Positions 5,576 to 54,700 of a DNA stretch of 64,000 bases are shown piece by piece. This DNA is from Amphibalanus amphitrite (taxonomy: Eukaryota): NCBI RefSeq assembly GCF_019059575.1, contig NW_024881521.1, positions 665,297 to 729,296 of the forward strand. The letters are read 5' to 3'. The notes below the pieces were generated by a model that was given only the letters and a program-made list of their open reading frames with translations, ran no database searches and was not told the origin of the DNA. How positions within the stretch are numbered: position 1 is the stretch's first letter; each line of letters opens with the position of its first letter. A program made the position numbers and the translations under genes.

Positions 5576-7370
5576 TCACTTGAGCAGCATCTTGTTGACC
5601 TCGGGCGTGAAGAACTTCATCTTTCCCTCTCCACTGCGACCGGCCAGCTCGGCGGCCGCCTTGATGGCGGTGACGAGCTGCGCCAGCTCCGGAGTCAGGT
5701 GCGGCAGGTCGTCCTCGGAGGGGCGGCGGCACCGCTCCGGCTCCGGCTCCGGCTCTCCCTCGGTTCCCTCCGGCTCGGCGCCCTCCTCCTCGTCCGAGCT
5801 GCTGCTGCTGTCGTCACCGCTGCTGTCGTCGCTGCTGCTGCTGTCGCCGCCGCTGTTACTGGACGAATTGTTGGCTGTGGGCAGAGGAGAAGTGGTCAAT
5901 TGTAATAAGGCTGGTCTTCGGGATGTTCCCAGGTGGCCCAGCAATAAAGCCGGCCGGCAATGGGCTTAGGGCTGGCTAAAAAGTCGGTCACGAAAGCGGT
6001 GTGAAAAAGGAAAAGTAAGTAGTTATGACTGAAAACTGAGCATAATTTTCAAGACATCGACTGTTGACGTTATAAAACCAGCGCTGAGTAACATTAGCCC
6101 TGCATACACTCTTGGCTGATTCAACTCACTGTTGGACGATGACGAGACCTTCCTGGCGGCGGGCGGGGGCGGCGGTGACGACCGCTCGGCACCCCCTGTC
6201 GCCGGCGACGAGCCGGCCTGGCGCGCCGCCGCCGCCACAACGTGGGCGATCGTCTCGTCCATCGAGTCGCGCGAGCCGTCATGACCGTTGGTCTGGGCGG
6301 TGCCATTCGTGGGGGCCTCCGCGGCTGGAAGGAGAGAAGATACGCGTCAGTTTATAATTCAAGTATGGATATGGTCACTGGAAGACGTGGGATGCAGACA
6401 GAGAATGAGGGAAAAGACAGGGAAGGACACATTAATCCGTCGGGAAAATCACAGAACGGGTGATTCCCTGTCGACCTGACACCTCAATTACTGCAGCAGG
6501 CAGCTTTGGAACGGGTAGCGTCCACAGCAGGAGCACGGTGACCTCATAAATCAAGGCACCGACTTTCTGACGCTCGACTACCCGCACTGCGTTATTTCGG
6601 TCCATGCCTCGCAACCTCGCAATCCCAACAACGGAAATGACCCTTTCAGTGGTGTTCGCTCAAGCAACGGCCGTTCACCTCCGCTTAAGTTGACAAAAAT
6701 AACACCAAGACGCCGCGCAGCAGACCGTACAGCCCGCCGTCTCCCCTAGCCCGACACCCACCAGCAGCTGTCCACGGCACTCCACTCCACACATTAATCA
6801 TTACATCCCAAAAAGCCCACATCTGAATCCGCGCCCACCGCGCATCATGAGTTCCAGTCCAATATAAGCGTGCCCTGACTTTAACTGGATTAGCGAGGAC
6901 ATTTGATCGTTTATGGGGTCATATAAATGGTTTACTCGATCATACTCTAGTCTCATAATCAGTACTCTAGATCATACTCGATCATGCCGAATAAAATCCA
7001 CAAATCCCAGCTTACCATTGACGGTCTCCGCCGCCGGTTCTGCCGCGGCCGCCGGTGGCTGAGCCGGGGGCGGCGTCTCGGCGGCCCGCTGCAGCTCTCT
7101 GTGCGCCTTCTTCTGCTCCAGCAGCTCCTTGACTGTCAGCGACGGCTTCTTCTTGAGCAGGCCGTCGATGGCGCGTCGTTTCTTCTTCTGTAGCAGGCTG
7201 GGGTCCTTCTTGGGCGGCCGGCCGAGCCTCTTTCGCGGCCGCTTCACACCGGGCTCCTGCTCCTCGCCAGTGGTGACGTCGTCGTCTGCGTCCGAGCTCA
7301 GCCGGCGCACCTGGCCGGGAGGGGGGGGGGGGGGAGGGGTGTCAGCATCGGCCGCTACCAACCGCGCCAT
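5576..7370 (-). CDS. Three-exon gene: AT-hook-containing, Ser/Asp/Glu-rich acidic nuclear-type protein (~282 aa)
   Basis: Exons on the minus strand are 7016..7370 (ATG at 7370), 6130..6324 and 5576..5874 (stop at 5576-5578). The donors are AATG|GTAAGC and ACA|GTGAGT. The acceptors are CTTCCAG|CC and CCCACAG|CC. All junctions are phase-1 consistent across three ORF-track frames (6972..7370, 6023..6262, 5576..5944). It has an AT-hook-like KRPRKRLGRPPKK, an acidic poly-Ser/Asp tract, and a C-terminal LTPELAQLVTAIKAAAELAG…FFTPEVNKMLLK. Confidence 0.55.
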
Positions 7371-8457
7371 TCACAGGTGTACACGCACATGCTCACCATG
7401 CAGACGGGCAGCGGCGGAAAACACACCGCCGCAGCTACAGTGCACTACGCACTGCTGTTGATAGCTTTACAACACAAAACACCCATACGCCGCTTGTGCC
7501 CGGCAGAATTAATGAAATCACAGAGTACCTAGCTTAACCCGCGCCCCAGTGGCGGTCTCAGCCAACTTCGCCCTAGTGAGGGGGGGGCATATGTTACCAC
7601 CCACCTCTAACTCAAAAACTAAGAGGGCTAGAAAGACGCGGTAAAAAGCAGTCGATAGCTCTCAATGTGTACGTTTGAAAGTATTTCAGTCATTTTTTAT
7701 CTTAGAGCAATATTGGGGTCACCAGAGGTCATCAAAGGTCAAAATCTGCCAATGGTCATTATATTTTTCAGAAAATATGCCGTTTTCTCAGGATCAATGG
7801 TAGCTAGAAAAACGCATGGAAAAGCAATCGATAGCTTTTGAACTCTTCTTTTGATAAAGTCATTATCAAAATTGACCTCAGGTCAACGGTTTAGCCTCCA
7901 GAGGGCAAAAACTCCAAAAATAGCTGTTTTTACGAAAAGTGTTTTTCGACAATAACTTTCGATTACAAAAAGCCACGACATTTTTATTGCCAGAATCGTG
8001 TTCCTCTCGCCGAGACGCGTCGAATGAACTATAATTTGACCTTGAAAGGTCAACTTGAAAATTTGACCTCAGGTCAAGGTCATGACCTGGCCGGAAAAGG
8101 TCATGTTGCATATCAATCGATGCGTCTCAACAAGACAAACACAATGAGACCATCTCCAGCGTTCTATCTCTTTCCAATCGCGAGTTATTGGCAAAAATCT
8201 GTTTGTAGCCTCAAATGACCTCGGATGACCTTTCTAGAGGCTATCAGCAAAAATGACACCTTGGTCATCACGGGTGGTCCAAATCATTGTGATTCTGAAA
8301 TATTTGGACTGTTCCTTTGCGTACACACGGATCTAGAGGCATTTTCATTTTTCTCCAATGACTTGTAATGGAAAAGTCACGCCACTGACCTGGCCTTAGG
8401 TCACAGATATAAAAAATCGGAGATATACAAATTGTAGGCGCTCATAACATCATGCAA

Positions 8458-9713: not shown

Positions 9714-11098
9714 CCGTTTCCGTCTGGCGGGCGGCGGCCGGCCCGGGTCGGCGCCATCAATCAGCTCCAGCCGCAGGGCACCGCGGTTGATGTAGAACCC
9801 GCCGAACTCAGGACGCTGGTTGGACGGCAGGTCCTCCTCGTGCTGTCGAAGGAGATATTACGCAGGTCAGGTCACTAGGCCAGGTCACCCAGGTTAGGTC
9901 ACTCGGGTCAAAGCACTTCTTAGCTGTTGGCACAATAGGTTGGGTTTAATTTGACGTTATGTAAGTTTTCATACCTATGCACTTGCACTTATGTTAGGCT
10001 ATAGGCATTATAGCAGCAGAATTGCCAACTGCCCCTACAATAAGACCCATTGGCACTCTCAACCATTCGACACATAAAAATTCCGCTATGACCAATGTCA
10101 AATAAATACATCCACAGTTACAACAGCTAACTCAGTAAAATACCGAGTAGTCCACTGACCAACAGAGACTGTGTATTGGACACTAACCACGTCCGAGTTG
10201 TCGATGAAGGGGTCGTTCTCGTCGTACCCCTGGCCCAGCTCCGACACATCACGGTGCTTCTTACGCTGCATACCGTCACCGGTGCCCTGAGAAAACAGCG
10301 ATAGGAGAGGGGTCAGGTTTTGTTGAAGGAACCTGTGAAACAGCAGTGGGACGAGGGTAAGACGTCGTACTAATTTTAGGGTTTATCATTTAAAACGGAG
10401 AATATGGCATGGGGACAGCAGTTGTTTACAGGCACACCAGTGTATCAAAGCTGAGCTGTCAGGAGCACTATCAATCCAGTCGCTACGTCTGACCAGCTCC
10501 GCCTACCAGCGCGGGTAAACAGTAGTCTGGTTTTCCGTCGAGAGGTAGACACAACACAGGCCACTCAGTATCAGCTGACTGGCACCGTTCAACGATTAAA
10601 GCTACCTGGTCCGAGGTGAGGGTCGTCTACCCAAACATTTGTCCGTGCGAGTTATTTCATCGCGACATTGATCGCATGATTACGAAGGAAAAACATCCAA
10701 AACGTAATTAATATCATAGAATAGATCTGGATATTGCTGGAATAAAAGTTCCCTGATGCAGTGCGGACCCTACCTTCAAAAATAATCTTTAATATTTTGC
10801 TTCATCCGTGCTACTACTCAAAATCCAATCACATTTTTAAAGTTATCAAAAGTTGGCATGCGCTCTCCAGGAAACCGAACCAGTTGCATCACACTGTACC
10901 ATCTGTTCCATGATCTATTACGGACATACATCGCCCCAAACTGTAGGGGCTCAGACCCGGCCGTCTCCGCCGGCAGAGACTCACGTATTTCTCCTCGAAG
11001 CGTCGCGCAATCTCCTTGACATTGTCATCGCTGTCCCCGAACGGATCGTCGGGCGGGTGCACGCCGTTCGCCTTGACCTTGTGACGCACATGCTTCTC
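9714..11098 (-). CDS. Three consecutive phase-0 coding exons of an unidentified acidic (nuclear-type) protein. The gene is incomplete at both ends
   Basis: Minus-strand exons are 10985..11098 (EKHVRHKVKANGVHPPDDPFGDSDDNVKEIARRFEEKY), about 10191..10286 (GTGDGMQRKKHRDVSELGQGYDENDPFIDNSD) and 9714..9842 (HEEDLPSNQRPEFGGFYINRGALRLELIDGADPGRPPPARRKR). The acceptors are CGCGACAG|, TTTTCTCAG| and CTTCGACAG|. The donors are |GTGAGT, |GTGGTTAGT and |GTCAGT. Two exons were anchored by ORF-track arithmetic; the middle exon may be off by 1 nt. Confidence 0.45.
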
Positions 11099-32760: not shown

Positions 32761-35700
32761 ATGAGTAAGAAGGACAGTTCCAGTTCGTCGGACAGCCTGT
32801 TCCGCATCCCTCCGCACTACTATGTGCACGTGCTCGATCAGACGGCCAACGTCACCCGGGTCGAGGTCGGACCGCAGACCTTCATCAGGAAGGACAATGA
32901 ACGGTAAGTGGGCGTTCGAGCGGCATCTCAGACAGAGACAGTCGGGAATTGGAGGGATTGAAGGGTGGGGTAGATATTCTCATGAGTATTCTACGAGCAG
33001 TATGTTCCGTAGCGACAATGATGCAAAAGTTGCTCATGAACGTCGGCTAGTTGAAGAGTGTATTTCCCAGTCTTTGTGTCCGCTGTGTGGGCGGGTCGGC
33101 CATATTGCCGGCTCGTCGGAGAGCCGGGGGGTCGCGCCGCGCTGGAGCCGGGACCGGGGATGGGACGCGCCATGTGGCCGCTCTCCGCCACACCCTGGAT
33201 CGATACGGAGAGCGCCCGACATTTCGGCGGCGTGTCCAGGCCCGAGTTCACCCGTCCGACTGGGGATCGGACGCTGCGGCCGGGCGCCATCTGTATGGGA
33301 GATCGGGTACTAGTGCGGCTGGGAGCTGCCAAGCTCTCATGGTGTAGGTCAGGGCAGGATAGGTGGCGCAGCGGGCCGAGGAGCTCGGGCTTCAACTCCC
33401 TCGTTTTGCGGTCACTGTCAATAACGGTGACCGTAGAAGAGCTGTGCTTGTCTAATTCTATCGTATAGTTTCCCGTCTCGGTTTCAACCAAAATGTGATG
33501 ATGTGCTCCTCAAACCCGCTAATGTTTCGAGACTTATTATTGGCCGTCTGTCCTGACCCTGTCCCGCTCCGTCTCCAGGGTCATCGTCGGCCCGAACGCC
33601 ATGGTGGTGGTGCCGCCGCGCCACTACTGTGTCGTCGAGAACCCGGTGGTGCGCGGCGAGGACGGTCAGGTGGTGTGCGACGCCAGCGGCCAGGCGCGCC
33701 TGCTGCACGCCGACACGGAGGTGCGGCTGCACCAGGACCCATTCCCGCTGTACCCGGGCGAGAAGCTCAGCTCGGCCGTGCTGCCGCTGAAGGTGGTCCC
33801 GCCCAACAAGGCGCTCCACCTGCGCGCGCTGCGCGAGTTCAAGGAGGGGGAGGTGGTGCGCTCCGCCGGCGATGAGTGGCTGTTCGGGCCGGGCACCTAC
33901 GTGCCGCGTCCGGAGGTCGAGGAGGTGGCCGATATCAAGGCCATCATCATCGGGCCGAACCAGGCGCTCCGACTGCGGGCACGACTCGAAACCACCGACT
34001 GGAAGGGCCAGAAGCGGGTGGCCGGCGAGGAATGGCTGGTGACCAGAGTCGGCGCCTACATGCCCGGCGTCTACGAGGAGGTGGCCAAGATGGTGAACGC
34101 TCACGTGCTGACGGAGAAGACGGCTCTTCTGGTGCGCGCCACTCGCACCTTCACCGACAGTCGCGGCGTGCGCAGGAAGAACGGCGAGGAGTGGCTGGTG
34201 CGCTTCGACGATATGGAAACGTTCATCCCAGACGTGTACGAGGAGGTGGTGGAGGAACGCGAGGTGACCACCCTCACCAGCCGGCAGTACTGCGTCATCT
34301 GCGACCCGGTCGGGCCGGACGGCAAGCCGCAGCTCGGCCAGCGTCGGCTGGTGCGCGGTGAGAAGTCGTTCTTCCTGCAGCCCGGTGAGACGCTGGAAGA
34401 CGACGTCCGCGACAACTACATCCTCCAGGAGAACGAGGCGCTGGTGCTGCGCGCCGGCGAGGCGTTCACTGACAACACAGTGACGCCGCCGGTGACGCGC
34501 CGGCCCGGAGACCGCTGGATGGTCACCGGGCCCGTGGAGTTCGTGCCGCCCATCGAGGTGGAGGTGGTCGTCCAGCAGACGGCTATCCCGCTCGACCGCA
34601 CCGAGGGTATCTACGTGCGCAACAACCGCACGGGCGAGGTGCGCGCCGTCTGTGGACAGACCTACATGCTCACCCAGGACGAGGAGCTGTGGGAGAAGGA
34701 GCTGCCCGCCAGCGTGGTGGAGCTGCTGCGTACCGACGCGCTGGCCGACCGCGGCGGCTACCGGGAGCTGAGACGGTCAGCGACCAACAAGAGCCATGAC
34801 GAGTTGAGCGACCGCACCCGCGTCATCACCTACCGCGTGCCGCACAACGCAGCCGTTCAGGTCTACGACTACAAGGCGAAGCGGTCGCGCGTTGTGTTCG
34901 GCCCCGACCTGGTGATGCTGGAGCCGGACGAACAGTTCACGCAACTCTCCCTGTCCGGTGGCAAGCCCAAGAAGCCCAACACGATCCGGGCGCTGTCGCT
35001 GCTGCTCGGACCCGACTTCTGCACTGATATTGTCACTGTCGAGACGTCCGACCACGCGCGTCTCTCGCTGCAGATTGCCTACAACTGGCACTTTGATGTC
35101 GGCAACAAGACTGCCGAGGATGCGTGCAAGATCTTCAGCGTGCCTGACTTTGTGGGCGACGCGTGCAAGGCGATCGCGTCTCGTGTGCGCGGCGCCGTGG
35201 CGCAGCGACCATTCGATGACTTCCACAAGAACTCGGCCAAAATCATCCGGCAGTCTGTGTTCGGTCTGGACGACGCTGGCAAGGTGCGCAAACAGTTTGT
35301 GTTTCCGCAGAACAACCTTGTGGTCACCTCGATCGACATCCAGAGTGTGGAGCCGGTGGACCAGCGGACGCGCGACTCGCTCCAGAAGAGCGTCCAGCTG
35401 GCCATCGAGATCACCACCAACGCTCAGGAGGCGGCCGCCAAGCACGAGGCCGAGCGCACGGAACAGGAGGCGCGTGGCCGACTCGAGCGGCAGAAGATTA
35501 AGGACGAGGCGGCCGCGGAGCAGGCGCGTAAGGAGCTCGTCGAGCTGCAGACGGCGTGCGCGGCCATCGAGAGCACCGGTCAGGCCAAGGCCGAGGCGCA
35601 GAGCCGCGCCGAGGCGGCCCGCATCGAGGGAGAGGCGGCCGTGGAGCAGGCCGGCCTGAAGGCGCGCGCCGCCAACATCGAGGCCGAGTCGGAGCTGGAG

Positions 35701-36018
35701 CGGCTGCGCTCGGCGCGCGAGGCCGAGCTCAAGTACACCGAGGAGAGCAACCAGCTGGAGATCGCGCGTTCCAAGGAGATGGCCAACATCGAGATCGAGA
35801 AGTTCCAGCAGATGGTGTCGGCGATGGGCGCCGAGACGTTGAAGGCCATGGCCACTGCTGGCGGCGACCACCAGGTGCGCATGCTGCAGAGTCTGGGCCT
35901 GCAGTCCACGCTCATCACCGACGGACGCACTCCCATCAGCCTGCTGAACACCGCCCAGGGCCTGGTGGGACTGGGCCAGGCGGCCGGGACCGAGTCGGCC
36001 GTCCAGCGGCCGCGCTAG
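32761..36018 (+). CDS. MVP: Major vault protein (MVP), ~860 aa, two coding exons
   Basis: Exons are 32761..32903 (ATG; donor ACG|GTAAGT) and 33579..36018 (acceptor TCTCCAG|G; stop TAG). Exon 1 ([47 protein letters not shown]) matches the MVP N-terminus. Exon 2 carries the MVP repeats (…GEEWLV…), the shoulder domain and the C-terminal coiled coil. Long stretches are near-identical to vertebrate MVP (KSFFLQPGE…, [35 protein letters not shown]…[10 protein letters not shown]…[22 protein letters not shown]). The ORF-track 'M' at 32707 is TTG. Confidence 0.93.
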
Positions 36019-38921: not shown

Positions 38922-41900
38922 TCACAGTGTGACCTGACACCGGTCGAAGGTGGCCACACAGTCGGCTCCGCGCCGTCCCTGCCTCATGGCCAGCAGATGG
39001 TCGGAGGGAGACGCCTCAGGCAGCAGCAGTGACAGCAGCAGGCCGCCCGTATACGTCAGCGCTGAGTGCAGTGCTGACTGCGAGCGGGCCTTCTGATTCA
39101 GCTCACACAGCAGACGGCGACCGCACTGCGAGCCCGCCTCCCTGCGGACAGAACGGTAACTAGTGGTTCATCGAATGACCGCTAGGTGGACAAATACGGT
39201 ACCGCTTCTCGCTGCTAGAAATATACACAAATCGAGCTGTTTCAAGATAATTGCTGGCATGCTATGGTTAAAATTAAATCACCTCTCTATGGGCTCCCTT
39301 GACCCTCCCCTTCCCCGCCCCGGCACAAGATGCAACTACCGAAACCGTGCTCCTCTCGGTAAGCCCCTCGTCTCTCGCTGCCCTCACCCATCCCACTCAC
39401 CCATGCATCCACACTGTGATCATGTTGAGGCCGATCTCCAGCAGACTGTTGATGTACTCGCCGATGATTCCCGGCCCGGGGAGCAGCACCTCCCGGCCTG
39501 CCGACGCTTCCTCATCTTCCAACTCCGCCAGGAGTCTGTCCCAGCGGTCCGGCGGTGTCGCCCATCGCAGCAGCTCGGGACCCAGCAGACGGCCCCAGAG
39601 ACCGCCGGCGGACCGGCCGCCCCCGCCGCCCGCCAGAGCGTCGTTGATGGCGTCGAAAAGGAGGACTCCCAGCGCGAGCACCGCTAGCGTGACCAGCGAG
39701 TTACCGGCGCCAGTTATTCTGTGGGTCAGGTTTCAGTCTGTCAGCGAAGGAGCGCCGATCGCCGATCATCGTCTTGTGAAGTTCATCGAGCTACAGGGTG
39801 TCCCATAAGTTCGTTCTCACATTATGTTTGCATGTGAAACAGAGTACATTGCGTTTTAATATATTTATGACCCCTCAATGTGCTCCCCATTTAATTGGCA
39901 AACACATGAATACATGCTGCGGCATGCCAAACGGCATGTTTGGCTGCATAGCAGGCTTAAAGTTAACCCAGACTGACTTGACATGCGCCGTGAGCTCCTC
40001 GAGGCTGGAACAGCGCTACGCTTCGACGAGCCTCAATTTCAGCATAACCAACAAATTTTTATGAAATTTTGATCCAATGAGGTGCCTGGCATGTGATCTT
40101 GCCACAAACGCCTGTCACAGTCTCCTTGCACCGCTTTTAAGCTTTGCTTGACCTGTGCACTGATGCACTGTCTTGCCTGAAGATGGGCCTACGACCTCCC
40201 GGATGCCATTTTCTCCTCTATAAATATGTTCATACTCGCGGTTCGAGTTCAGCTTGAGGGCTGAAACTCCTCCTAGATGTTCTTGGAAAAACATTCTGTT
40301 TCTCAAAACTGTTTCTGGGTTGCCACTTGCAACTTGGTCAACTCCAGAACGCCTATAACCCCACAACACACTAACACAGTGACCTGGCCTTTTGCATAGG
40401 AACATAACGGGACGAAACGGAGGCCTCCTCCTCCGCCCTTATGGGGTTGTATTCGGGTTTGGACGGGTGTTTCATCTCGAACGTGGACTAGTTAGTCCTG
40501 ATGACCTGGTTGATGTCATCAGCCCTCTGTTTTGTTTAGCCTCAGACATAACGAAACTCATGTTTGGCCATTTTAAGACGTTTTTGACTGTTTTGTGCCC
40601 TCCGTTAAGCAAAGCTTAAGTCACCTTGAGTTATGTACCCCGAAAGAACACTCTTAGACAGCTGGTAATCCATCCTGAAAAGTCTGCTTACCAACTTTGT
40701 AACCCTTTGACCTTTTTGATGCCACTTTGGCGCCACACAGTTTTGGCCACTTGGCTCACTCCTGAGGGCTGACTGGAAAGAGGATAAACTTGTAGTGACT
40801 GACTCCCGACAAATCATCGGCGTCACTTGCTGACTGTGCGTCCAGTTAGCGATGGGCATTGGCTACAGACTGGTAGGCCTCAATCACCCTCAATCGTCGC
40901 GAATGGTCACGTGCTGACTAAATACTGAGACGTACCCGTATCGGAGACCTCTATGTTGCGGCGTTAGCCGTCTCTGTAGGAAGCGGGCTCTATAGTAAAA
41001 ACTATTTTGTCTACAGAAATTAGCTAATGTGGAGCATATTTCTACCAGCCATGGCAACCACGTAAGCTCAGTTACGAACCAATTTCAGCGTGCCTTTAAG
41101 CAAGAGAGCCTAAAAACGTAAAATTTAGGTGAGAACGAACTTATGGGACACCCTGTATATTGGGCAAGGCCCTTGTAAAAAGCGACTATTCTGCTGGCAG
41201 GAGTTATAGTGAAAGCTATTTTTTTAGACAAATCACCCGCTACAAGGCGTCATGACTTAACTAAGCATGTTCTACGGACAGTCTTAAGCAGGCGAGCTCA
41301 GGTTCAGCCTACCTACCTCATTTGCGAGTCCAGCCTCTGTGACAGCTTCTGTCGGACCAGCTGGATGCGAGCGCTGATGTCTTCCAGTCGCTCCGTCAGC
41401 TCGGAGCTGGGTGGTTCAGTGGGGAGCTGTCCAGGGGCCGTCTCACGGCCTCCCCCGCTGCCGGCGGGATTTGGACCGGGCTCTGGCCATGGCTCTGTCT
41501 GAGGATGGATCTCCGGGGGCTCCGTCTGAAGATGGGGCTCTGGGTGGTGTTCCGGCCACTCCTGGAGCTCTGAGTGTTCATTTGGAGGATCGGACTCCGA
41601 CTGGAGCTCCAGGTCGACTCCTGGTCGGCGGTCTATCGGAGTTTCTGGTCGCTCTGTCTGATGCTCCGGGTGCTCCGTCTGAACGTGAAGCTCCGAGTGC
41701 TCCGAGTGCTCTGACCAGTGCTCCGTCTGAAGGCAGTGCTCCGGGTGCTTCGTTTGGTAATTTACCCCGGCGCTCGCCTCCGTGGGTACGGTGACCTCTG
41801 AAACCATTGTGGTCCTCTCTACCTGACCCTCCACGCCTGGCTCAACAGTGCTCGGCGGTTGGCCGGTGGTGACAGAGACAGGCGGCCTCCAGACTGGCCA

Positions 41901-42203
41901 GGCCGTGTGGGAGCGAAGGAGACTGGTCACAACCTGAACCTCTCCGGGAGAATGCAGGCTGCTCGAACCAGGCTTAGAAGGGCTAGATGTTGTTACCGGG
42001 CTAGATCTGGTAGAAGTTGGGTCCTCCGGTCGGAATTTGCTGATTCTGCTGATTCGGAGTGGAGCTCTTCTGAGCCGCACCAGCCGTTGAACGTCACCAC
42101 TTTGAGCACTGACCGTCCCGGCCTCAGCCAGCAGTCCTCCCAGCACTGCTGCCATCAGCAGCACACGAGTCAGCTCCGACATCGACATGATGTTCACTGG
42201 CAC
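38922..42203 (-). CDS. Three-exon gene for a predicted type I membrane protein (~474 aa): signal peptide, His/Glu/Pro-rich repeat ectodomain, one TM helix, cytoplasmic tail
   Basis: Exon 1 is 41317..42203 (ATG; signal MSMSELTRVLLMAAVLGGLLAEAG; repeats EHSEHSELHVQTEHPEHQTERPETP; donor GAG|GTAGGT). Exon 2 is 39401..39718 (acceptor CCCACAG|A; TM LVTLAVLALGVLLF; donor CATGG|GTGAGT). Exon 3 is 38922..39141 (acceptor TGTCCGCAG|G; stop TGA). Both junctions are phase-consistent (AG+A = Arg; GG+G = Gly). The 1.6-kb intron contains a Tc1/mariner-type MITE. Confidence 0.45.
39794..41155. mobile_element. ~1.36-kb TA-flanked MITE with a perfect 27-bp TIR (CAGGGTGTCCCATAAGTTCGTTCTCAC); Tc1/mariner-type
   Basis: The flanks are TA|CAGGGTG…CACCCTG|TA (TA at 39792-93 and 41156-57). 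It has no intact transposase ORF and sits in the intron of the 38922-42203 gene. Confidence 0.65.
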
Positions 42204-47472: not shown

Positions 47473-50400
47473 CTCATACTGAGATTTTTCCGTTATATTG
47501 AAAAGACTCACTTCGCTCGCTGCGCTCGCTCGCTCGTAATAAATGTCTGATAAATTTGCAAATTAACGCACGATCGATGCTCGCTCACCATGCATTTGGC
47601 ATGAGTAATAAATTAAAGTTGTACTCTTTCCTCCGACTAATATCCTATCTAAAGCTCAGCAGCGAAAAGCCAGCACACCGCGCTGGCTCATCCCGGTTTA
47701 TCAACGCAGGAGAACGTCGCCTCACAGCGTCCTCCCGTCCTGGCCTCCAGGACGGCGGCCAGCTTCTCCCACAGAGAGACCTCCGCCGTGGGGATCAGGG
47801 ACGTCCCGACACTGTGAAAGGGGTCTCTGGTCAGTACGGGAACGGGGTCAAACATTAAACAATGCCATCAGCGAGAGATTACATTTTTTTGTCAGCCAAT
47901 TGAAATATTCTTTTCTTCATCCAAAATTATCTCGTGAGAAAATACTTTAATTATTTGGTGTACCTATTCGAGACCGAGTATCGAACGGCTACGTAATAGT
48001 CAGCGCCATGTCCGATATCTTGAATAAACGCTATTTACATGCATACGAGTCATTTGGTATTCCCAGAAACAGCCAAGCGATCAATTGCATAAATTATTGG
48101 ACTTTTCGCTCTAAACAGCTATTTGTTTTTTAGATTGTTCGGCGTCCGCGCGATATAGGGATCATGCTGCGCCGCAATCACGCGTGTAGTGCGGAACAGT
48201 CTACCAGGAAAGAGACGTTAGTTCCTGGAGCATTAACTGACCGCTCGTAGGTATATGTGCCTACCATATATCAAGGGCGCCCTTTAAAAGCACCTACATA
48301 TATTTCCGACATTTTGAATACCTTGATTTATTATTAATCCATTTCCTACTTCAAAATGCATTAATTACCTAAGCATACAATTACCCACTATGCAACCAAT
48401 GCCCTTCGCCCCTCCCCCCCCCCCCCCTCTCGACACAAACATCGGTCTTTTTGTATCGGTTCCGTTTACCGTCTCTCACCTGACGAGGTTATAGATGAGT
48501 CCTTTGTAGACCTCCTGCTGCTGCGCTCGGCTGTTGAGCTGACAGAGCCGGCGGGCCACGCAGCCTGACCTCTCCAGCACCAGCAGCCGGGAGGTGCTCA
48601 GCAGCGCCTCGGCTGCCAGCTCGGGCACCTCGTCCACGCTGCCCAGCAGGAAGGTCAGCTCGGACCAGAGTCCGACCTCTGCGGCACCTCCGTCTCTGCG
48701 GCCTCCGGTGCCGCCGCCCGTACCCGTGCCGCCGCCACCGATCGCCTGCTGTACCAGCAGTAACAGGAACGTGCCGAACGCTAGGAAACTGAGCCCCGTG
48801 AGCAGCATCCCGAAACTGGGGAGCAGCATGCCGCCGCCGCCCCCGTAGCCCATGGACGACCTGGCTGTCGCCGCGAGCAGACGGTTAGCCGGCCGCGCTA
48901 GGGACCGGGGCACGAGCGAGGGCGCCGCAGGGCCGGGCACGGTCAGCGCAGCGAGCATCATTGTCCTCCACAGACGCCGGGATGGAAACTTGGAGGACCT
49001 AGAGGTGATTGCCATAGCTCGCAGCACTGTCACAAGTCAACAAGTCGACTGGCAAGATATGTGCACTTCCATGCGCGCTTACACTTCAACGCATACGAAA
49101 GACCAACTCGCACTTCTTCAATTGAAGCACACACAAGAAACACCCGCTGGGCGGCATGCACAAATCTGACGCGATTGAGCCATGTGCGGCGCGTCCGGGA
49201 CGGCTGCGGCGCACGTCCGTCCCGGCCGTATAGTGCAGGTGAAGTCTCACTCAGGAGCGCACAATTGACAACCGTTCTGGTACGGTGGTGACGAGGCGGA
49301 GCATTGGCGGCGGTGGCAGCGGCAACAACAGGAACGGCGAATGGGCGCACGGCGAACCCAGTCGACCGGGAGTCCCGGTGATGTGATGGCGGTGATGGCG
49401 GTGAAGATCCTCAACTGTGACCGGGTAACGGATGGGCGCAGCGACCACAAGTGGTTGATGCTTGCGTGAAGGCTATATGTAGTGGCAGACGGTTGGAAAC
49501 TCACGTGAGGAAGGTCTCCCATGCGTGCTGGTTTGGAAATTCCAGTGCAAAGAACTTAAAACACAGCTCGGCGCTCGCCCATCGCTCATAGTAGTTTCAC
49601 GGCTTGTTGCGGGTCAAAATGTTTCATTTTAATTGGTAAGCTTTCAATTGGTCCACTTTCAAACATTCATCAAAATTCGATCATCAGCATAATCTATCAA
49701 TTTGTGCGCACACCAGTAGCCGATATTAGCTACGAATGTCGTGCCGTCTTTATAATGCAATGACATATATGTCATTGCCCACCCACCTATATGTGTACAC
49801 ACGCATGTGTGTATAAATAAATGTATGCGTGGGAATGGCGCGATCTGTTGTTTACCGTTTTGTACGCTATACCGCGCCATTCGCAAATGTCCCACAGTCG
49901 ACTGCAAGCCCACCGTCTATGCGTCGTGCATACTTGGTGCATATGCCGCCTACACATCGTGCCTATAGCTTCAGCAATGTCTTATGGCACATACCGGCCC
50001 GGCAGAACGGTCCTCACTGTTAGGCGCTTACGCCAACGACTTCAGAATACCTCACCGCGACGACACGCTACGTTAATTATGGGACATTAGCCAGCATGAC
50101 ACTGGTTCGCTACGCACCGTCCTCGCTCGGGGAATTACGCCAAATTACGGCTGAAAAATGGGGCAAAATGAGCATCACAACAAACTCGAGCCCTCCTTCG
50201 CTATATGGTGTTCCACTCACAGCAGTGTGCTATCATTCCTTATTGCAGTTCGTGATATGGATTCATTGGACAAATAAAATAATGCAGTCAATAACATCAG
50301 AGCTAATGACGTCTTTTCTATCGTTCCATTTTCCTCTCAACAGTCTCAGCCATCATATTCGCATCACGCACGCCCTTGTATGAATGGCATGCGTTTCGTC

Positions 50401-51293: not shown

Positions 51294-54200
51294 TCAGGTC
51301 GGGTCAGCTGAGCAGCTTTCTGCGGCACGAGACCAGCACGAGAGGTCGCTGCTGTCGTCCGTTGCGTCCCATAGCGAAGCTCCCAGACTCAGGAGGTTCC
51401 AGACGGGTGCATCGCTCATGGCTGACTGAACCGCCCTGTAAAACGGTAAAATAAGCTGAACAGGGTCTACGTAATTTAGCGATGGAAAACCGCTAAAGCA
51501 TATGTAAACAAGCTTTCCAAACAAATATCTTTTGTTCCCAGTATTGTATAGGGCAGGCTAACACCGAAAATGATAACATTGATAACGACACAAAATTTGT
51601 TTATTATTAAAACTTAAATACCTCATTGTTAAAATTTATAAATGCTTGCAGTACATATATGAATGCCCTATCACATAAAGTTACATAATAACATTTAGCA
51701 ATAATTCTTTGAAACGCTAATTTTAAATTGAAGTGCCCCATTATACGGTTAGTTAACAATCTCCGGGGGTACTCACAGTACGGCGATGGCGGCGGCGATA
51801 TCGGCTGGGCTGTCGACCCTGGCCCTCAGCTCGTGACACAGCGCCAGCGGGCGGCAGGTCAGGTCATCGGGCAGGGCGGCGACGGAGCCGGACAGCGAGC
51901 GGTAGGTGCCCAACAGGTGACCCACGGTGCTGGAGCCGGAGGGACAGGTCTGGTGGCTAATCTCGTCAGCAACCTCTTCACCACTTCCTTCAGCAAGGTG
52001 GTCAGCGTCTTCAGAAGCGTTTGCTTCGCTTTGGTCAAGATATTTGGTGGTGATGTTGGTGGCATGTTCTTGCTGCTGTCTGCTGGCTCCTTCAGCGTCA
52101 TCAGTCAGGCCGTCTGTACAGCGTTCCGTCAGGATCTCTAGCTCGCGGAGCAGTCTGGATCCTGCGCCCGCCACCTGACCTCCTCCCTCCTGGGTCAGCG
52201 CGTCCACCACCCAGAGGTTTGCGGTGGTGTTACCAAGCACCTCTCCAAGGGCCACGGCACGCTCCGCCGCGAACAGCGCGAACGGAAGAACAACGAGCGC
52301 CGAGAGAAGGCCGTCCACCACCGACGACCTGCCGGTACCGGCGGGCAGACCGGCTCGGTCCTGGAGGATCGTCGAGTCCGGCTCACCCCAGTCCGTGTAT
52401 TGCAGCACCTGACCTCTCTCATCAGCTCTGGTCCTATCCCAGCGCTCATCGCGCCTCAGAACACTTGGCAGAAGTGGGAATCGAATGGAGGGAACTCCCC
52501 AGTTGAGTGACGGGAATGTCGACATGCGCCGGAGGAAGCCTCCTAGCAGACCCATCTGCCAGTCGTACGCGGCGCGGAACGGAGCGCTGAGCCAGTCGAA
52601 CGACGGGAACCGGTGCTCGGCCGGCCTGTGTGGCCTGTGAGGCCCGTGAGGTCCGTGAGGTCTGTGAGGTCTGTGAGGTCTATTGGGTCGGCGAGGATGG
52701 TCAAACTCGTCCAGCGTATCAGTTTCGGCCGGTGCCGTGCCGTAGTCCACTTCTGTGACCGGGTCGAGGGTGTGTGCGTCTAGAGCTGCCTCGCTCACGG
52801 CGCCGAAGCCGGAGACCTGCGGTGTGTAGGTAGTCGGAAACGGCTGGACGTCTATGGGCTCGGAGGGCCGTGTCCCATCGCGACGGTTCGGCGACCCGCG
52901 TAGAGTCGGCAACTGAGAGTTGTAGGGAGGACCGTACATCTGGCTTGGTCGTTTCCTGGGAGCTCCATATGTTTGACTGGGTCTGCTTGGAGTGTTGTAT
53001 GAAGAGCTTGGCTTGGAATTCGGAGCACCGTTAGACGCGCTCGACGTAGACTTCGGTGGTCCGTATGATGCTTTGGGTTTACTCTTTGGTGGTCCATAAG
53101 ATGTCTTGGGTTTTGACTTCGGTGGTCCGTACGAAGCATTTGGTTTGGATTTAGGTGGCCCATACGATGCGTTTGGTTTAGACTTGGGTGGCCCATACGA
53201 TGCATTTGGCTTAGACTTTGGAGGTCCATACGAAGAGTTTGGCTTCGACTTCGGTGACCCATGCGATGGTTTCGGTTTTGCTTTTGGTGGTCCATACGAT
53301 GGTTTTGGTTTTGCCTTTGGTGGCCCGTATGATGGCCTTGGCTTTCGTTTGGGCTTGGGAGGCCCATACGAAGGTCTGGGCCTTCGCTTAGACTTTGGTG
53401 GTCCATATGAAGGTTGAGGCTTTCGCTTGGGTTTCGGAGCTCCGTACGAAGGCCTTGGCCTGGGTGCTCCATATGACGGTCTTGGTCTCTTGCGACGTCG
53501 ATGGGGTCTGTTCCTGTTTCGCCTGACGTGTCGCTCGTACCACCAGGGCGTCCTCCATGTCGTGAGGTACTCCCAGGAGGGGAACAGTCTGCGGATCCTC
53601 CTCCTCATGCCGTTCCAGATGCGGGACATCCGGGATACTATGCCGGCCCTCGGTATGGAGCTGGCTGCGGTCTGGTCTTCGTACCTGTACTCGTTGTCTC
53701 CGGCCGACCACCCGGAGTCGGAGCTAAACGCCGAGTCGTAGTCGCCGAGCTCGAGTCCATTCACTGATTCCAGCGCGTCCTGACTGGATTCGGCCGTCAG
53801 ATCAGGGTCGCCGTAGATGGGGTGCGTGTCGGCCGTCTTTGTGATGACCAGCCACTGAGAGTCGCTGGTGCCCAAGTCACCTTTCGCCGAACCACCCGGA
53901 CCAGGACTGGAGCCGAGCATTGGGGTCCACTGGAGGCTGTCGGCACAGGTACTGCACGGACCCAGTGGGGATCCGTCGTCTGACGGCCCTAAAATGGTGG
54001 AGGCGGTGGCCAGCTGATCCTCCAGGAATGGTTCCGAGCCGGCCTCGTAAGGGGCCTCCAGCCCCGTCTCCGCCACACTGGTGACTTCGGTGACCTCTGT
54101 GGCCTCGGTGCTGACCTCTGTGACGTTCGGACGGCGCAGCATCTCCTCGAAAATCGTGGCGAGCGTGTCTCGAACAGCCTCCTTAAAGCCGGTCCCGTTC

Positions 54201-54700
54201 GTGTCATGTTTCGTGCCGGTATCAACGATGGCTGCGTCACGTGCAGTCAACGAGGTGATGTATGATGTGAGGTTATCCACACGGTGAGCCGACAAGCCGT
54301 CTTTCGGTGGTGTGTTTGGGTATCCTAAACTGTTGACCTGCCTTAGGTCATCCCCTGCCGGCCAGGGCCACCCACGCTCCGGGAGACGGTAGCCGCTGAC
54401 CAGGTCGTCCTGTCCCCGCGCTGTACTCTCTCCAGCTCCGCCATCCTCTGAGATCTCCTCGTCATCCTGCCACTGTATGACCCAGTCTGGACCGGCTGAC
54501 CTGTCCACGGACATGTACCGCGATGGGGACAGGGCCGAGGCCACCGTCAGCGCGGCGGCTGAGCCGGAGCCGTGGTGTAGCAGCAGATCAGACAGGGTGG
54601 CTGGACCGAACACCGTCACCTCGTAACCTGGGCTTAACGTCAGCAGCGACAGCAACAGTGGAAGAACGGCCAGCGGCGATGGCTGCAGAAGGCGCACCAT
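51294..54700 (-). CDS. Secreted Lys/Pro-rich tandem-repeat protein. The main 2.9-kb exon is 974 codons. A possible spliced 49-codon terminal exon lies downstream
   Basis: The main exon is 51777..54700 (ATG at 54700) with a signal peptide MVRLLQPSPLAVLPLLLSLLTLSPG. About 20 units of (P)SYGPPK(S/A)KP(K/N/R) were read in the protein, followed by a (RPH)n tract. The in-frame stop TGA (51773-75) overlaps a consensus donor ACT|GTGAGT. A downstream acceptor CCGTTTTACAG|G opens an in-frame 142-nt exon (51294..51435) ending in TGA. That gives two alternative C-termini (974 aa unspliced, ~1021 aa spliced). Confidence 0.55.

Follow-up and report, generated by a model that had tools for sequence, protein, structure and literature searches.

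In the barnacle Amphibalanus amphitrite, a region on the minus strand of a 64-kb stretch of DNA (the whole stretch that was analysed, hereafter the window) had been read in a preliminary description as three exons of one membrane protein gene with a transposon in its first intron. This raises the question of whether the region holds one gene or two neighbouring ones and, if one, what kind of protein it would encode and which of its parts are under selection. The gene model considered here consists of the following parts:

41317-42188, minus strand: coding exon 1 (aa 1-290 and two bases of codon 291; ATG at 42188), with the predicted signal peptide, a fast-evolving disordered region and a conserved juxtamembrane helix
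39719-41316, minus strand: intron 1 (1598 nt, GT..AG; 234 nt without the transposon and an extra TA)
39401-39718, minus strand: coding exon 2 (aa 291-397, codons partial at both ends), with a hydrophobic helix, a Gly-rich linker and the first helix of the C-terminal domain
39142-39400, minus strand: intron 2 (259 nt, GTGAGT...CGCAG)
38922-39141, minus strand: coding exon 3 (aa 397-469 and the TGA at 38922-38924), with the DM4_12 core

Once concatenated, the exons give 1410 nt that translate in frame into 469 aa followed by a stop, the splice donors being GAG/GTAGGT and TGG/GTGAGT and the acceptors CACAG/A and CGCAG/G. The spliced product corresponds letter for letter to the RefSeq protein XP_043230462.1 (LOC122385900), sharing its start codon, both junctions and its stop, without any sequence difference. 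Judging from the sequence, the region is very probably the complete coding part of LOC122385900, an ordinary protein-coding gene with three minus-strand coding exons. The gene is already known, its RefSeq entry being an "uncharacterized protein" that carries neither a name nor a domain description nor a remark on the transposon, and a literature search with the locus and protein identifiers returned no match. The in-frame joining of three minus-strand exons in the preliminary description was confirmed, with all coordinates exact and both introns of the GT-AG type, as was its view that the TAG in the open reading frame track (41313-41315) lies inside the exon 1 donor GAG/GTAGGT; the same reading overlooked, however, that the protein carries a DM4_12 domain.

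The splice sites were compared with those of four other loci, of which L004 belongs to a second A. amphitrite assembly (GCA_009805615.1), while L001, L002 and L003 are more distant orthologues. All four sites are kept in L001-L004, the end of exon 1 (ATGAG/GT) is identical across them, and intron 2 sits at the same position in L002, L003 and L004, where it is 196, 120 and 280 nt long, respectively. Between L001-L003 and the window the exons alone could be aligned, the introns being otherwise unalignable. Exon 2 shares 82-88% amino acid identity with the exon-2 open reading frames of L001-L003 and exon 3 shares 88-99% with L002-L004, while homologues of other crustaceans read through the exon 2/3 junction without interruption.

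A rival explanation would place two separate genes here, i.e., a secreted His/Glu/Pro-rich protein terminated by the TAG at 41313, next to a small DM4_12 protein made from exons 2 and 3; in agreement with it, GCA_009805615.1 annotates the neighbours FJT64_002294 (137 aa, ending ...LDSQMR) and FJT64_002295 (111 aa). In that assembly, however, a homopolymer run of exon 2 has one G too many, which breaks the frame, FJT64_002295 starts within exon 2 and FJT64_002294 in the middle of exon 1, whereas RefSeq unites the three exons at precisely the junctions given above. The four other loci keep both the phase-2 donor that follows ATGAG and the in-frame acceptor, the end of exon 1 (LTERLEDISARIQLVRQKLSQRLDSQMR) is conserved as strongly as exon 2, and in the homologues the equivalent helix immediately precedes the membrane helix within a single polypeptide. 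We consider two genes highly improbable, and the split annotation FJT64_002294/FJT64_002295 likely stems from this single-base homopolymer error of the older assembly. The importance of the single-gene model is mostly one of annotation, as the older A. amphitrite gene models divide one gene.

The nature of the protein was examined through its C-terminal part, for which AlphaFold2 gave the following feature:

38925-39477, minus strand: folded C-terminal helical domain (aa 372-469), split by intron 2

When the full-length protein was searched against Pfam with E-values up to 10, DM4_12 (PF07841) was the only match, and DUF1676 (PF07898) remained unmatched. The domain scored 23.9 bits in the full protein and 26.1 bits in exons 2 and 3 together (curated gathering cut-off 22 bits), the match running from aa 396 to 465 of the protein and from position 15 to 86 of the 86-position profile; among the relatives, the orthologue L002 reached 25.2 bits and a Cherax homologue (P0009) 23.2 bits. 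Four cysteines (Cys403, Cys409, Cys458, and Cys465) are invariant in a 14-sequence alignment (A1), and the AlphaFold2 model has five helices with a pLDDT of ~90 or more from aa 374 (query residue 112) to the C-terminus. The modelled helix bundle crosses the exon 2/3 junction, with its first helix coming from exon 2 and the others from exon 3. Exon 3, which had been taken for a mere tail, holds the DM4_12 domain, the best-conserved part of the protein, and the domain is, by its substitution pattern, under purifying selection (dN/dS 0.13-0.14 for aa 263-469 vs. ~0.4 in the N-terminal part).

An exhaustive HMMER search returned 25 matches. In a separate protein search, the full-length query yielded one match, with low-complexity candidates dominating, and the C-terminal query was more productive. 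The names of ten full-length matches were checked, all of them being uncharacterized pancrustacean proteins or unnamed transcripts, and the domain recurs in krill, crabs, crayfish, prawns, and a springtail, in proteins that are likewise uncharacterized. Most full-length relatives share the same order of an N-terminal hydrophobic region, a variable region, a hydrophobic helix, and a C-terminal four-Cys domain. With high confidence, we place the protein within the DM4_12 (PF07841) family, in a branch that is pancrustacean. The small uncharacterized clade of conserved architecture that is defined in this way offers a possible entry to the function of the domain.

DM4_12 has been called "function-unknown", and four Cys close to the C-terminus are described as conserved in its family (PMC12825958). 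The barnacle protein resembles PF07841 in scoring above the gathering cut-off, in having four Cys near the C-terminus and in its arthropod host; it differs in that the match begins only at position 15 of the profile, that the scores of the barnacle/decapod clade straddle the cut-off by small margins, and that a long disordered region and then a membrane helix precede the barnacle domain. The insect proteins Osiris 17 and Osiris 24 (DUF1676 and DM4_12) are likewise reported to combine a signal peptide and a transmembrane region with DM4_12 near the C-terminus (PMC12825958), but the likeness is one of architecture alone: since DUF1676 was not matched even with E-values up to 10, the barnacle protein is not an Osiris. 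The Dm412 retrotransposon has a similar name and is unrelated to DM4_12. Elsewhere in the window, a 975-aa Mucin-like open reading frame (51773-54700) was considered as a third DM4_12-type gene and rejected, as no four-Cys exon was found downstream of it by HMM and regex searches.

The position of the domain relative to the membrane depends on two predicted hydrophobic features:

42102-42188, minus strand: predicted signal peptide (aa 1-29, hydropathy heuristic), h-region VLLMAAVLGGLL, followed by VSA/QS
39643-39711, minus strand: predicted transmembrane helix in exon 2 (aa 294-316), GAGNSLVTLAVLALGVLLFDAIN

The N-terminal stretch aa 9-27 has a Kyte-Doolittle (KD) 19-residue mean of 1.82 and is followed by VSA/QS, its h-region (aa 9-20) reaching a KD12 of 2.68, and the orthologues L002 and L003, like the majority of homologues, have a hydrophobic region at the N-terminus as well; the signal peptide predicted earlier for exon 1 agrees with these values. 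The same holds for the single transmembrane helix predicted for exon 2, as there is one strong hydropathy peak (aa 294-316, mean KD 2.06, the highest in the protein), which is helical in the AlphaFold2 model and kept in 12 of the 14 aligned family members. A weaker peak (aa 419-437, KD 1.31) lies within the folded domain. With a signal peptide and one hydrophobic helix, a type I topology is plausible, and the DM4_12 domain would consequently be cytosolic, but the evidence on orientation is conflicting, since the four invariant Cys of the C-terminal domain (twin CX5C...CX6C) suggest disulfides.

It is possible, although on the whole doubtful, that the gene model is right and the DM4_12 domain is nevertheless luminal or extracellular and disulfide-bonded, in which case the helix would be no stop-transfer anchor or the mature domain would be cleaved free. 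Besides the four invariant Cys in their twin CXnC arrangement, such a location is favoured by the homologue P0014, which has a good signal peptide and only KD 0.54 at the aligned helix position, so that, having no membrane helix, its domain would be extracellular; P0012 likewise has no hydrophobic helix, and several homologues carry basic clusters (RKRR, RNKR) just upstream of the domain as candidate convertase sites. The barnacle proteins, however, have no dibasic site between helix and domain, and a cleaved signal peptide with a single helix of 20-23 residues at KD ~2 is textbook type I. In the springtail homologue (P0011), which has no separate signal peptide, the sole hydrophobic helix has a C-flank of +4, and the K/R-rich C-flanks of the decapod homologues range from +1 to +4; by the positive-inside rule, these flanks would make the C-terminal domain cytosolic.

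The region between the signal peptide and the membrane helix contains two further features:

42054-42065, minus strand: R-x-(K/R)-R motif RLRR (aa 42-45), followed by PLRISRI
41454-41756, minus strand: His/Glu/Pro-rich low-complexity block (aa 145-245) with five degenerate QTExPE-type units

The first takes the form RLRR, RLKR or RPKR followed by (A/T)PLRISRI in the window as well as in L004, L001, L002, and L003, and RLRR is a possible candidate for a proprotein-convertase site, at which cleavage would be inferred from the motif. The composition of the second is 12.9% H, 19.8% E, and 17.8% P. Its DNA repeats are degenerate, with five dispersed 36-nt units of 61-81% identity and a 9-nt x 2.4 array as the sole clean tandem, and at the protein level its units are five QTE(H/R/P)(P/W)xE motifs.

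The preliminary description had seen in the HPEH/EHSEH-type repeats a metal-binding-like ectodomain; the block itself is real, with degenerate repeats, but a conserved metal site is suggested by composition only and, as the block is missing from orthologues, is unsupported. We consider it unlikely that the block is a functional metal-binding ectodomain, e.g., for Zn2+, Ni2+ or Ca2+ in shell or cement biology. The 13 His and 20 Glu among its 101 residues, including the strings HPEH, EHSEH, and EHHPEPH, would fit such a role, as would its retention in both A. amphitrite haplotypes (the window and L004), but in L001-L003, the three orthologous loci that are more distant, it is missing or has only about one unit left, and it matches no Pfam metal-binding family. 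Between the two haplotypes, moreover, 10% of the exon 1 residues differ (dN/dS ~0.4), and single His positions vary (EHPEHQTE vs. ERPEPHIE). By all appearances, the block is a lineage-specific, fast-evolving low-complexity spacer.

Taken in order, the protein would start with a cleavable signal peptide. The luminal or extracellular region behind it evolves rapidly, is probably disordered and has expanded in this barnacle lineage into the His/Glu/Pro-rich low-complexity block. Next would come a juxtamembrane helix, which is conserved, a single hydrophobic membrane helix, and a Gly-rich linker, and the last part would be a compact all-helical four-Cys C-terminal domain, the selected and functional core. 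Most likely, it would act as a membrane-anchored protein of the secretory/endosomal pathway in which the DM4_12 module does the work and the N-terminal region is a variable spacer. We find it very unlikely that the barnacle-specific growth of a single QTExPE unit into a His/Glu/Pro-rich ectodomain gave a conserved DM4_12 membrane protein a new metal- or mineral-binding role, e.g., in the shell or cement, or that the domain is cytosolic in anchored and extracellular in secreted proteins.

The remaining part of the locus is the insertion in intron 1:

39794-41155, no strand assigned: non-autonomous Tc1/mariner-type element with terminal inverted repeats (TIRs), 1362 bp
39794-39820 and 41129-41155: TIRs of the element, perfect over 27 nt (27/27 identical; 0 chance matches expected)
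39792-39793 and 41156-41157: TA target-site duplication

In the window the element ends read TA/CAGGGTG...CACCCTG/TA, while L004 has an empty site with a single TA (CCCAATA-TA-GCTCGATG), and none of the orthologous introns 1 (238, 439, 275, and 338 nt) contains the element. This precise absence from the second A. amphitrite assembly points to a recent insertion polymorphism. The element inserted at a TA 159 nt 3' of the donor, and its other end lies 75 nt 5' of the acceptor; the splice signals are left intact, and the insertion is very probably polymorphic within the species.

The longest open reading frame inside the element has 96 aa. A remnant of a Tc1 transposase C-terminus, suggested by a likeness seen by eye, was dropped, as the three gene-sense frames gave no Pfam match with E-values up to 10 and tblastn with the SB10 and Mos1 transposases gave chance-level matches (E above 1). 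The TA duplication, the perfect TIRs starting with CAGGGTG, the lack of a detectable transposase, the precise empty site, and TIRs common to several unrelated interiors are all shared with non-autonomous elements of the Tc1/mariner type. MITEs usually stay under 0.8 kb. The TA-flanked element with 27-bp TIRs proposed earlier is present, but its designation as a MITE, which implies small size and high copy number, does not fit 1362 bp and one copy in the 64 kb of the window; neither there nor in L001-L004 was a second copy found, nor did an autonomous partner come to light. In a scan of metagenomes, eight loci had only the TIRs in common, and the three elements with both ends present were TA-flanked; elements bounded by the same TIRs were 1.0-1.2 kb long, with different interiors and no long transposase-like open reading frame. 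Between L005 and L008, the element is 98% identical and the flanks are different. The two assemblies of A. amphitrite document a barnacle intron in which a non-autonomous Tc1/mariner-type element is polymorphic, being present in one and cleanly absent from the other.

Concatenation of the three minus-strand exons gave 1410 nt (469 codons and TGA), and in an exact-sequence look-up the 469-aa product was identical to XP_043230462.1, so that the RefSeq start, junctions and stop are the same as those of the spliced model. The gene is thus already annotated in RefSeq and, with its domain in Pfam and a transposon of an ordinary type, the finding is an ordinary one. The features are as follows (slashes mark splice points):

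42188..41317, minus strand: exon 1, starting with ATG
39718..39401, minus strand: exon 2
39141..38922, minus strand: exon 3, ending with TGA
Donors, minus strand: GAG/GTAGGT (intron 1) and TGG/GTGAGT (intron 2)
Acceptors, minus strand: CACAG/A (intron 1) and CGCAG/G (intron 2)
39794-41155: non-autonomous element of 1362 bp in intron 1
39794-39820 and 41129-41155: perfect 27-nt inverted repeat (none expected by chance)

Both introns are in phase 2. The preliminary description had joined the three exons in frame and had assigned the TAG terminating the mechanical ORF 41313..42203 to the first donor; this structural reading was right, and the TAG falls within GAG/GTAGGT.

The junctions were compared in four loci, namely contig VIIS01000581.1 of the second A. 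amphitrite assembly (GCA_009805615.1; L004) and three more distant orthologues on contigs of ENA metagenome assemblies, of which one is from a Tara sample (L001, L002, and L003), which aligned to the window at the DNA level in the exons only. All four splice sites were found at identical codon positions with GT/AG kept, with intron 1 measuring 238, 439, 275, and 338 nt across the loci and intron 2 measuring 280 nt in L004, 196 nt in L002, and 120 nt in L003. The spliced models of L002 (456 aa) and L003 (460 aa) each had an unbroken reading frame, beginning with an N-terminal Met and a hydrophobic leader and ending, as in the window, in ...C(Q/K)VTL before the stop. L001 (k141_255572) starts with an Illumina adapter at 1-45 (GTGACTGGAGTTCAGACGTGTGCTCTTCCGATCT), hence the first residues of the protein called on it (P0001, MTGVQTCALPIL...) are an artefact. 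The annotation of GCA_009805615.1 has two genes at this locus, FJT64_002294 (137 aa) and FJT64_002295 (111 aa), a split that is probably due to one extra G in a G-run of exon 2 (L004 10648-10967; GCAGGGCC vs. GCAGGCC in the window), which lengthens the exon from 318 to 319 nt and breaks its frame; the extra G is a probable assembly error.

By BLAST, window positions 48000-43756 were 99.95% identical to L004 and the remaining compared region (43758-30037) 94-96%, so the window is barnacle DNA of this species but from another assembly or haplotype. In exon 1, dS was 0.13 and 10% of the residues differed between the two haplotypes. The drop in identity at ~43757 is abrupt, and the two assemblies apparently have a haplotype in common to one side of it but different, diverged ones to the other. 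At this position, ~1.5 kb upstream of the gene, L004 holds ~1.27 kb of additional DNA (6681-7954), a second large insertion/deletion between the two haplotypes or assemblies.

Intron 1 had been described as invaded by a TA-flanked Tc1/mariner MITE with 27-bp terminal inverted repeats (TIRs), of which all but the name stood: "MITE" is loose usage at 1362 bp, and "non-autonomous Tc1/mariner-type element" is safer. The filled site reads ...CCCAATA-TA-CAGGGTG...CACCCTG-TA-GCTCGATG... in the window and the empty one ...CCCAATA-TA-GCTCGATG... in L004, where positions 10578 and 10577 adjoin window positions 41156 and 39793, respectively (BLAST). The site in L004 is precisely empty and keeps one TA, which is the mark of a Tc1/mariner-type insertion; the perfect TIRs and the presence/absence difference within the species point to a recent insertion. 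The element is separated from the upstream donor by 159 nt and from the downstream acceptor by 75 nt, so that the core splice signals are untouched. No coding capacity was detectable in the element, and its interior matched nothing else in the window or in L001-L004. When metagenomes were scanned for the first 20 nt of the TIR, eight contigs were recovered, having only 27-38 nt in common with the window element, at the ends. Among themselves, these contigs fall into families of 1003-bp and 1200-bp elements flanked by TA (two of the contigs, L005 and L008, being 98% identical across the element with different flanks), and the metagenome elements checked showed no long ORF of transposase type. 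Since only the ends are shared and the families differ, one TIR type bounds several unrelated non-autonomous interiors.

Exon 3, previously termed the tail, is more fully described by the Pfam domain DM4_12 (PF07841, cut-off 22 bits), which matched aa 396-465 with 23.9 bits in the full protein, 26.1 bits in exons 2 and 3, and 25.2 bits in the L002 orthologue; neither DUF1676/Osiris nor any other family was reported in the Pfam scan of the 469-aa protein. An exhaustive HMMER search with aa 263-469 matched 25 proteins. Ten full-length ones were looked up by name; two of these are unnamed sequences from short Logan and JGI contigs, probably transcripts, and the others are uncharacterized proteins from a springtail and from krill, crayfish, swimming crab, spiny lobster, mantis shrimp, and prawns. 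The full-length homologues aligned continuously across the intron 2 position. In most members of the 14-sequence family alignment, an N-terminal hydrophobic leader is followed by a non-conserved region, an amphipathic helix, a hydrophobic helix, a linker, and the C-terminal domain (LPGxG...LNxITxW/Y...C-x5-C...GR-x3-C-x6-C), which reaches the protein C-terminus and whose four Cys are invariant throughout. The closest described architecture is that of insect Osiris 17/24 (signal peptide, transmembrane region, and a DM4_12 domain termed "function-unknown"; PMC12825958), but the Osiris-defining DUF1676 is absent from the barnacle protein. No paper mentioning this locus was found in the literature.

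For window vs. L002 or L003, dN/dS was 0.13-0.14 over aa 263-469 and ~0.4 in the N-terminal part, where amino acid identity was only 31-35%. The five barnacle loci all share a short N-terminal motif, R-x-(K/R)-R and then (A/T)PLRISRI, which resembles a proprotein-convertase site and at which the protein may be cleaved. Residues 145-245 contain 12.9% His, 19.8% Glu, and 17.8% Pro, and the coding DNA holds degenerate repeats (five 36-nt units of 61-81% identity and one 9-nt × 2.4 tandem). These agree with the HPEH/EHSEH-type repeats noted before, but their metal-binding gloss is not supported, as L001-L003 lack a counterpart of the block and show about one (K/H)TE(x)P unit vs. five in the window. 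We read it as a lineage-specific low-complexity expansion within a disordered spacer rather than as a conserved metal site.

In the hydropathy profile, exon 2 holds the strongest peak (aa 294-316), a weaker peak lies at aa 419-437, and an N-terminal h-region is predicted at aa 9-27, followed by VSA/QS (slash, putative cleavage point); the proposed signal peptide in exon 1 and membrane helix in exon 2 fit this profile. A cleaved signal peptide and one strong hydrophobic helix predict a type I protein with a cytosolic DM4_12 domain, the leading reading, which we hold with slightly better than even confidence. Alternatively, the domain would not be cytosolic: the twin CXnC arrangement of its four invariant Cys suggests disulfides, and in homologue P0014 a good leader is present but the aligned position holds no hydrophobic helix, which P0012 likewise lacks, so their domain would be secreted. 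However, the sole hydrophobic helix of the springtail homologue has a C-flank of +4, and those of the decapod homologues range from +1 to +4, which argues for the type I orientation.

The same (minus) strand probably carries a tandem paralogue ~6 kb upstream (49015..48480 and 47811..~47700). Its first exon encodes a hydrophobic helix and a Gly-rich linker, and ends in ...SGCVARRLCQLNSRA at a CAG/GTGAGA donor, with the next exon, which encodes ...GGRCEATFSCVDKPG*, following in frame; the family HMM matched it (E 1e-5), Pfam DM4_12 scored just 12.7 bits, below the cut-off, and its intron position differs from those of the gene studied. Also on the minus strand (51773..54700), a 975-aa open exon with a signal-peptide-like start and PSYGPPKSKP-type repeats matched Pfam Mucin-like (PF16058, E 1.8e-16) and ends at a GTGAGT donor directly after ...CRPLALCHELRA, similar to the DM4_12 domain start; a four-Cys exon was looked for downstream of it and not found. 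A Mucin-like gene is also present upstream of the orthologue in L002. On the plus strand, an 805-aa ORF (33576..36018) showed 88% DNA identity to a major vault protein gene (Vault/MVP Pfam domains) that adjoins the DM4_12 orthologue in L002 and L004, making the two genes neighbours in at least two taxa.
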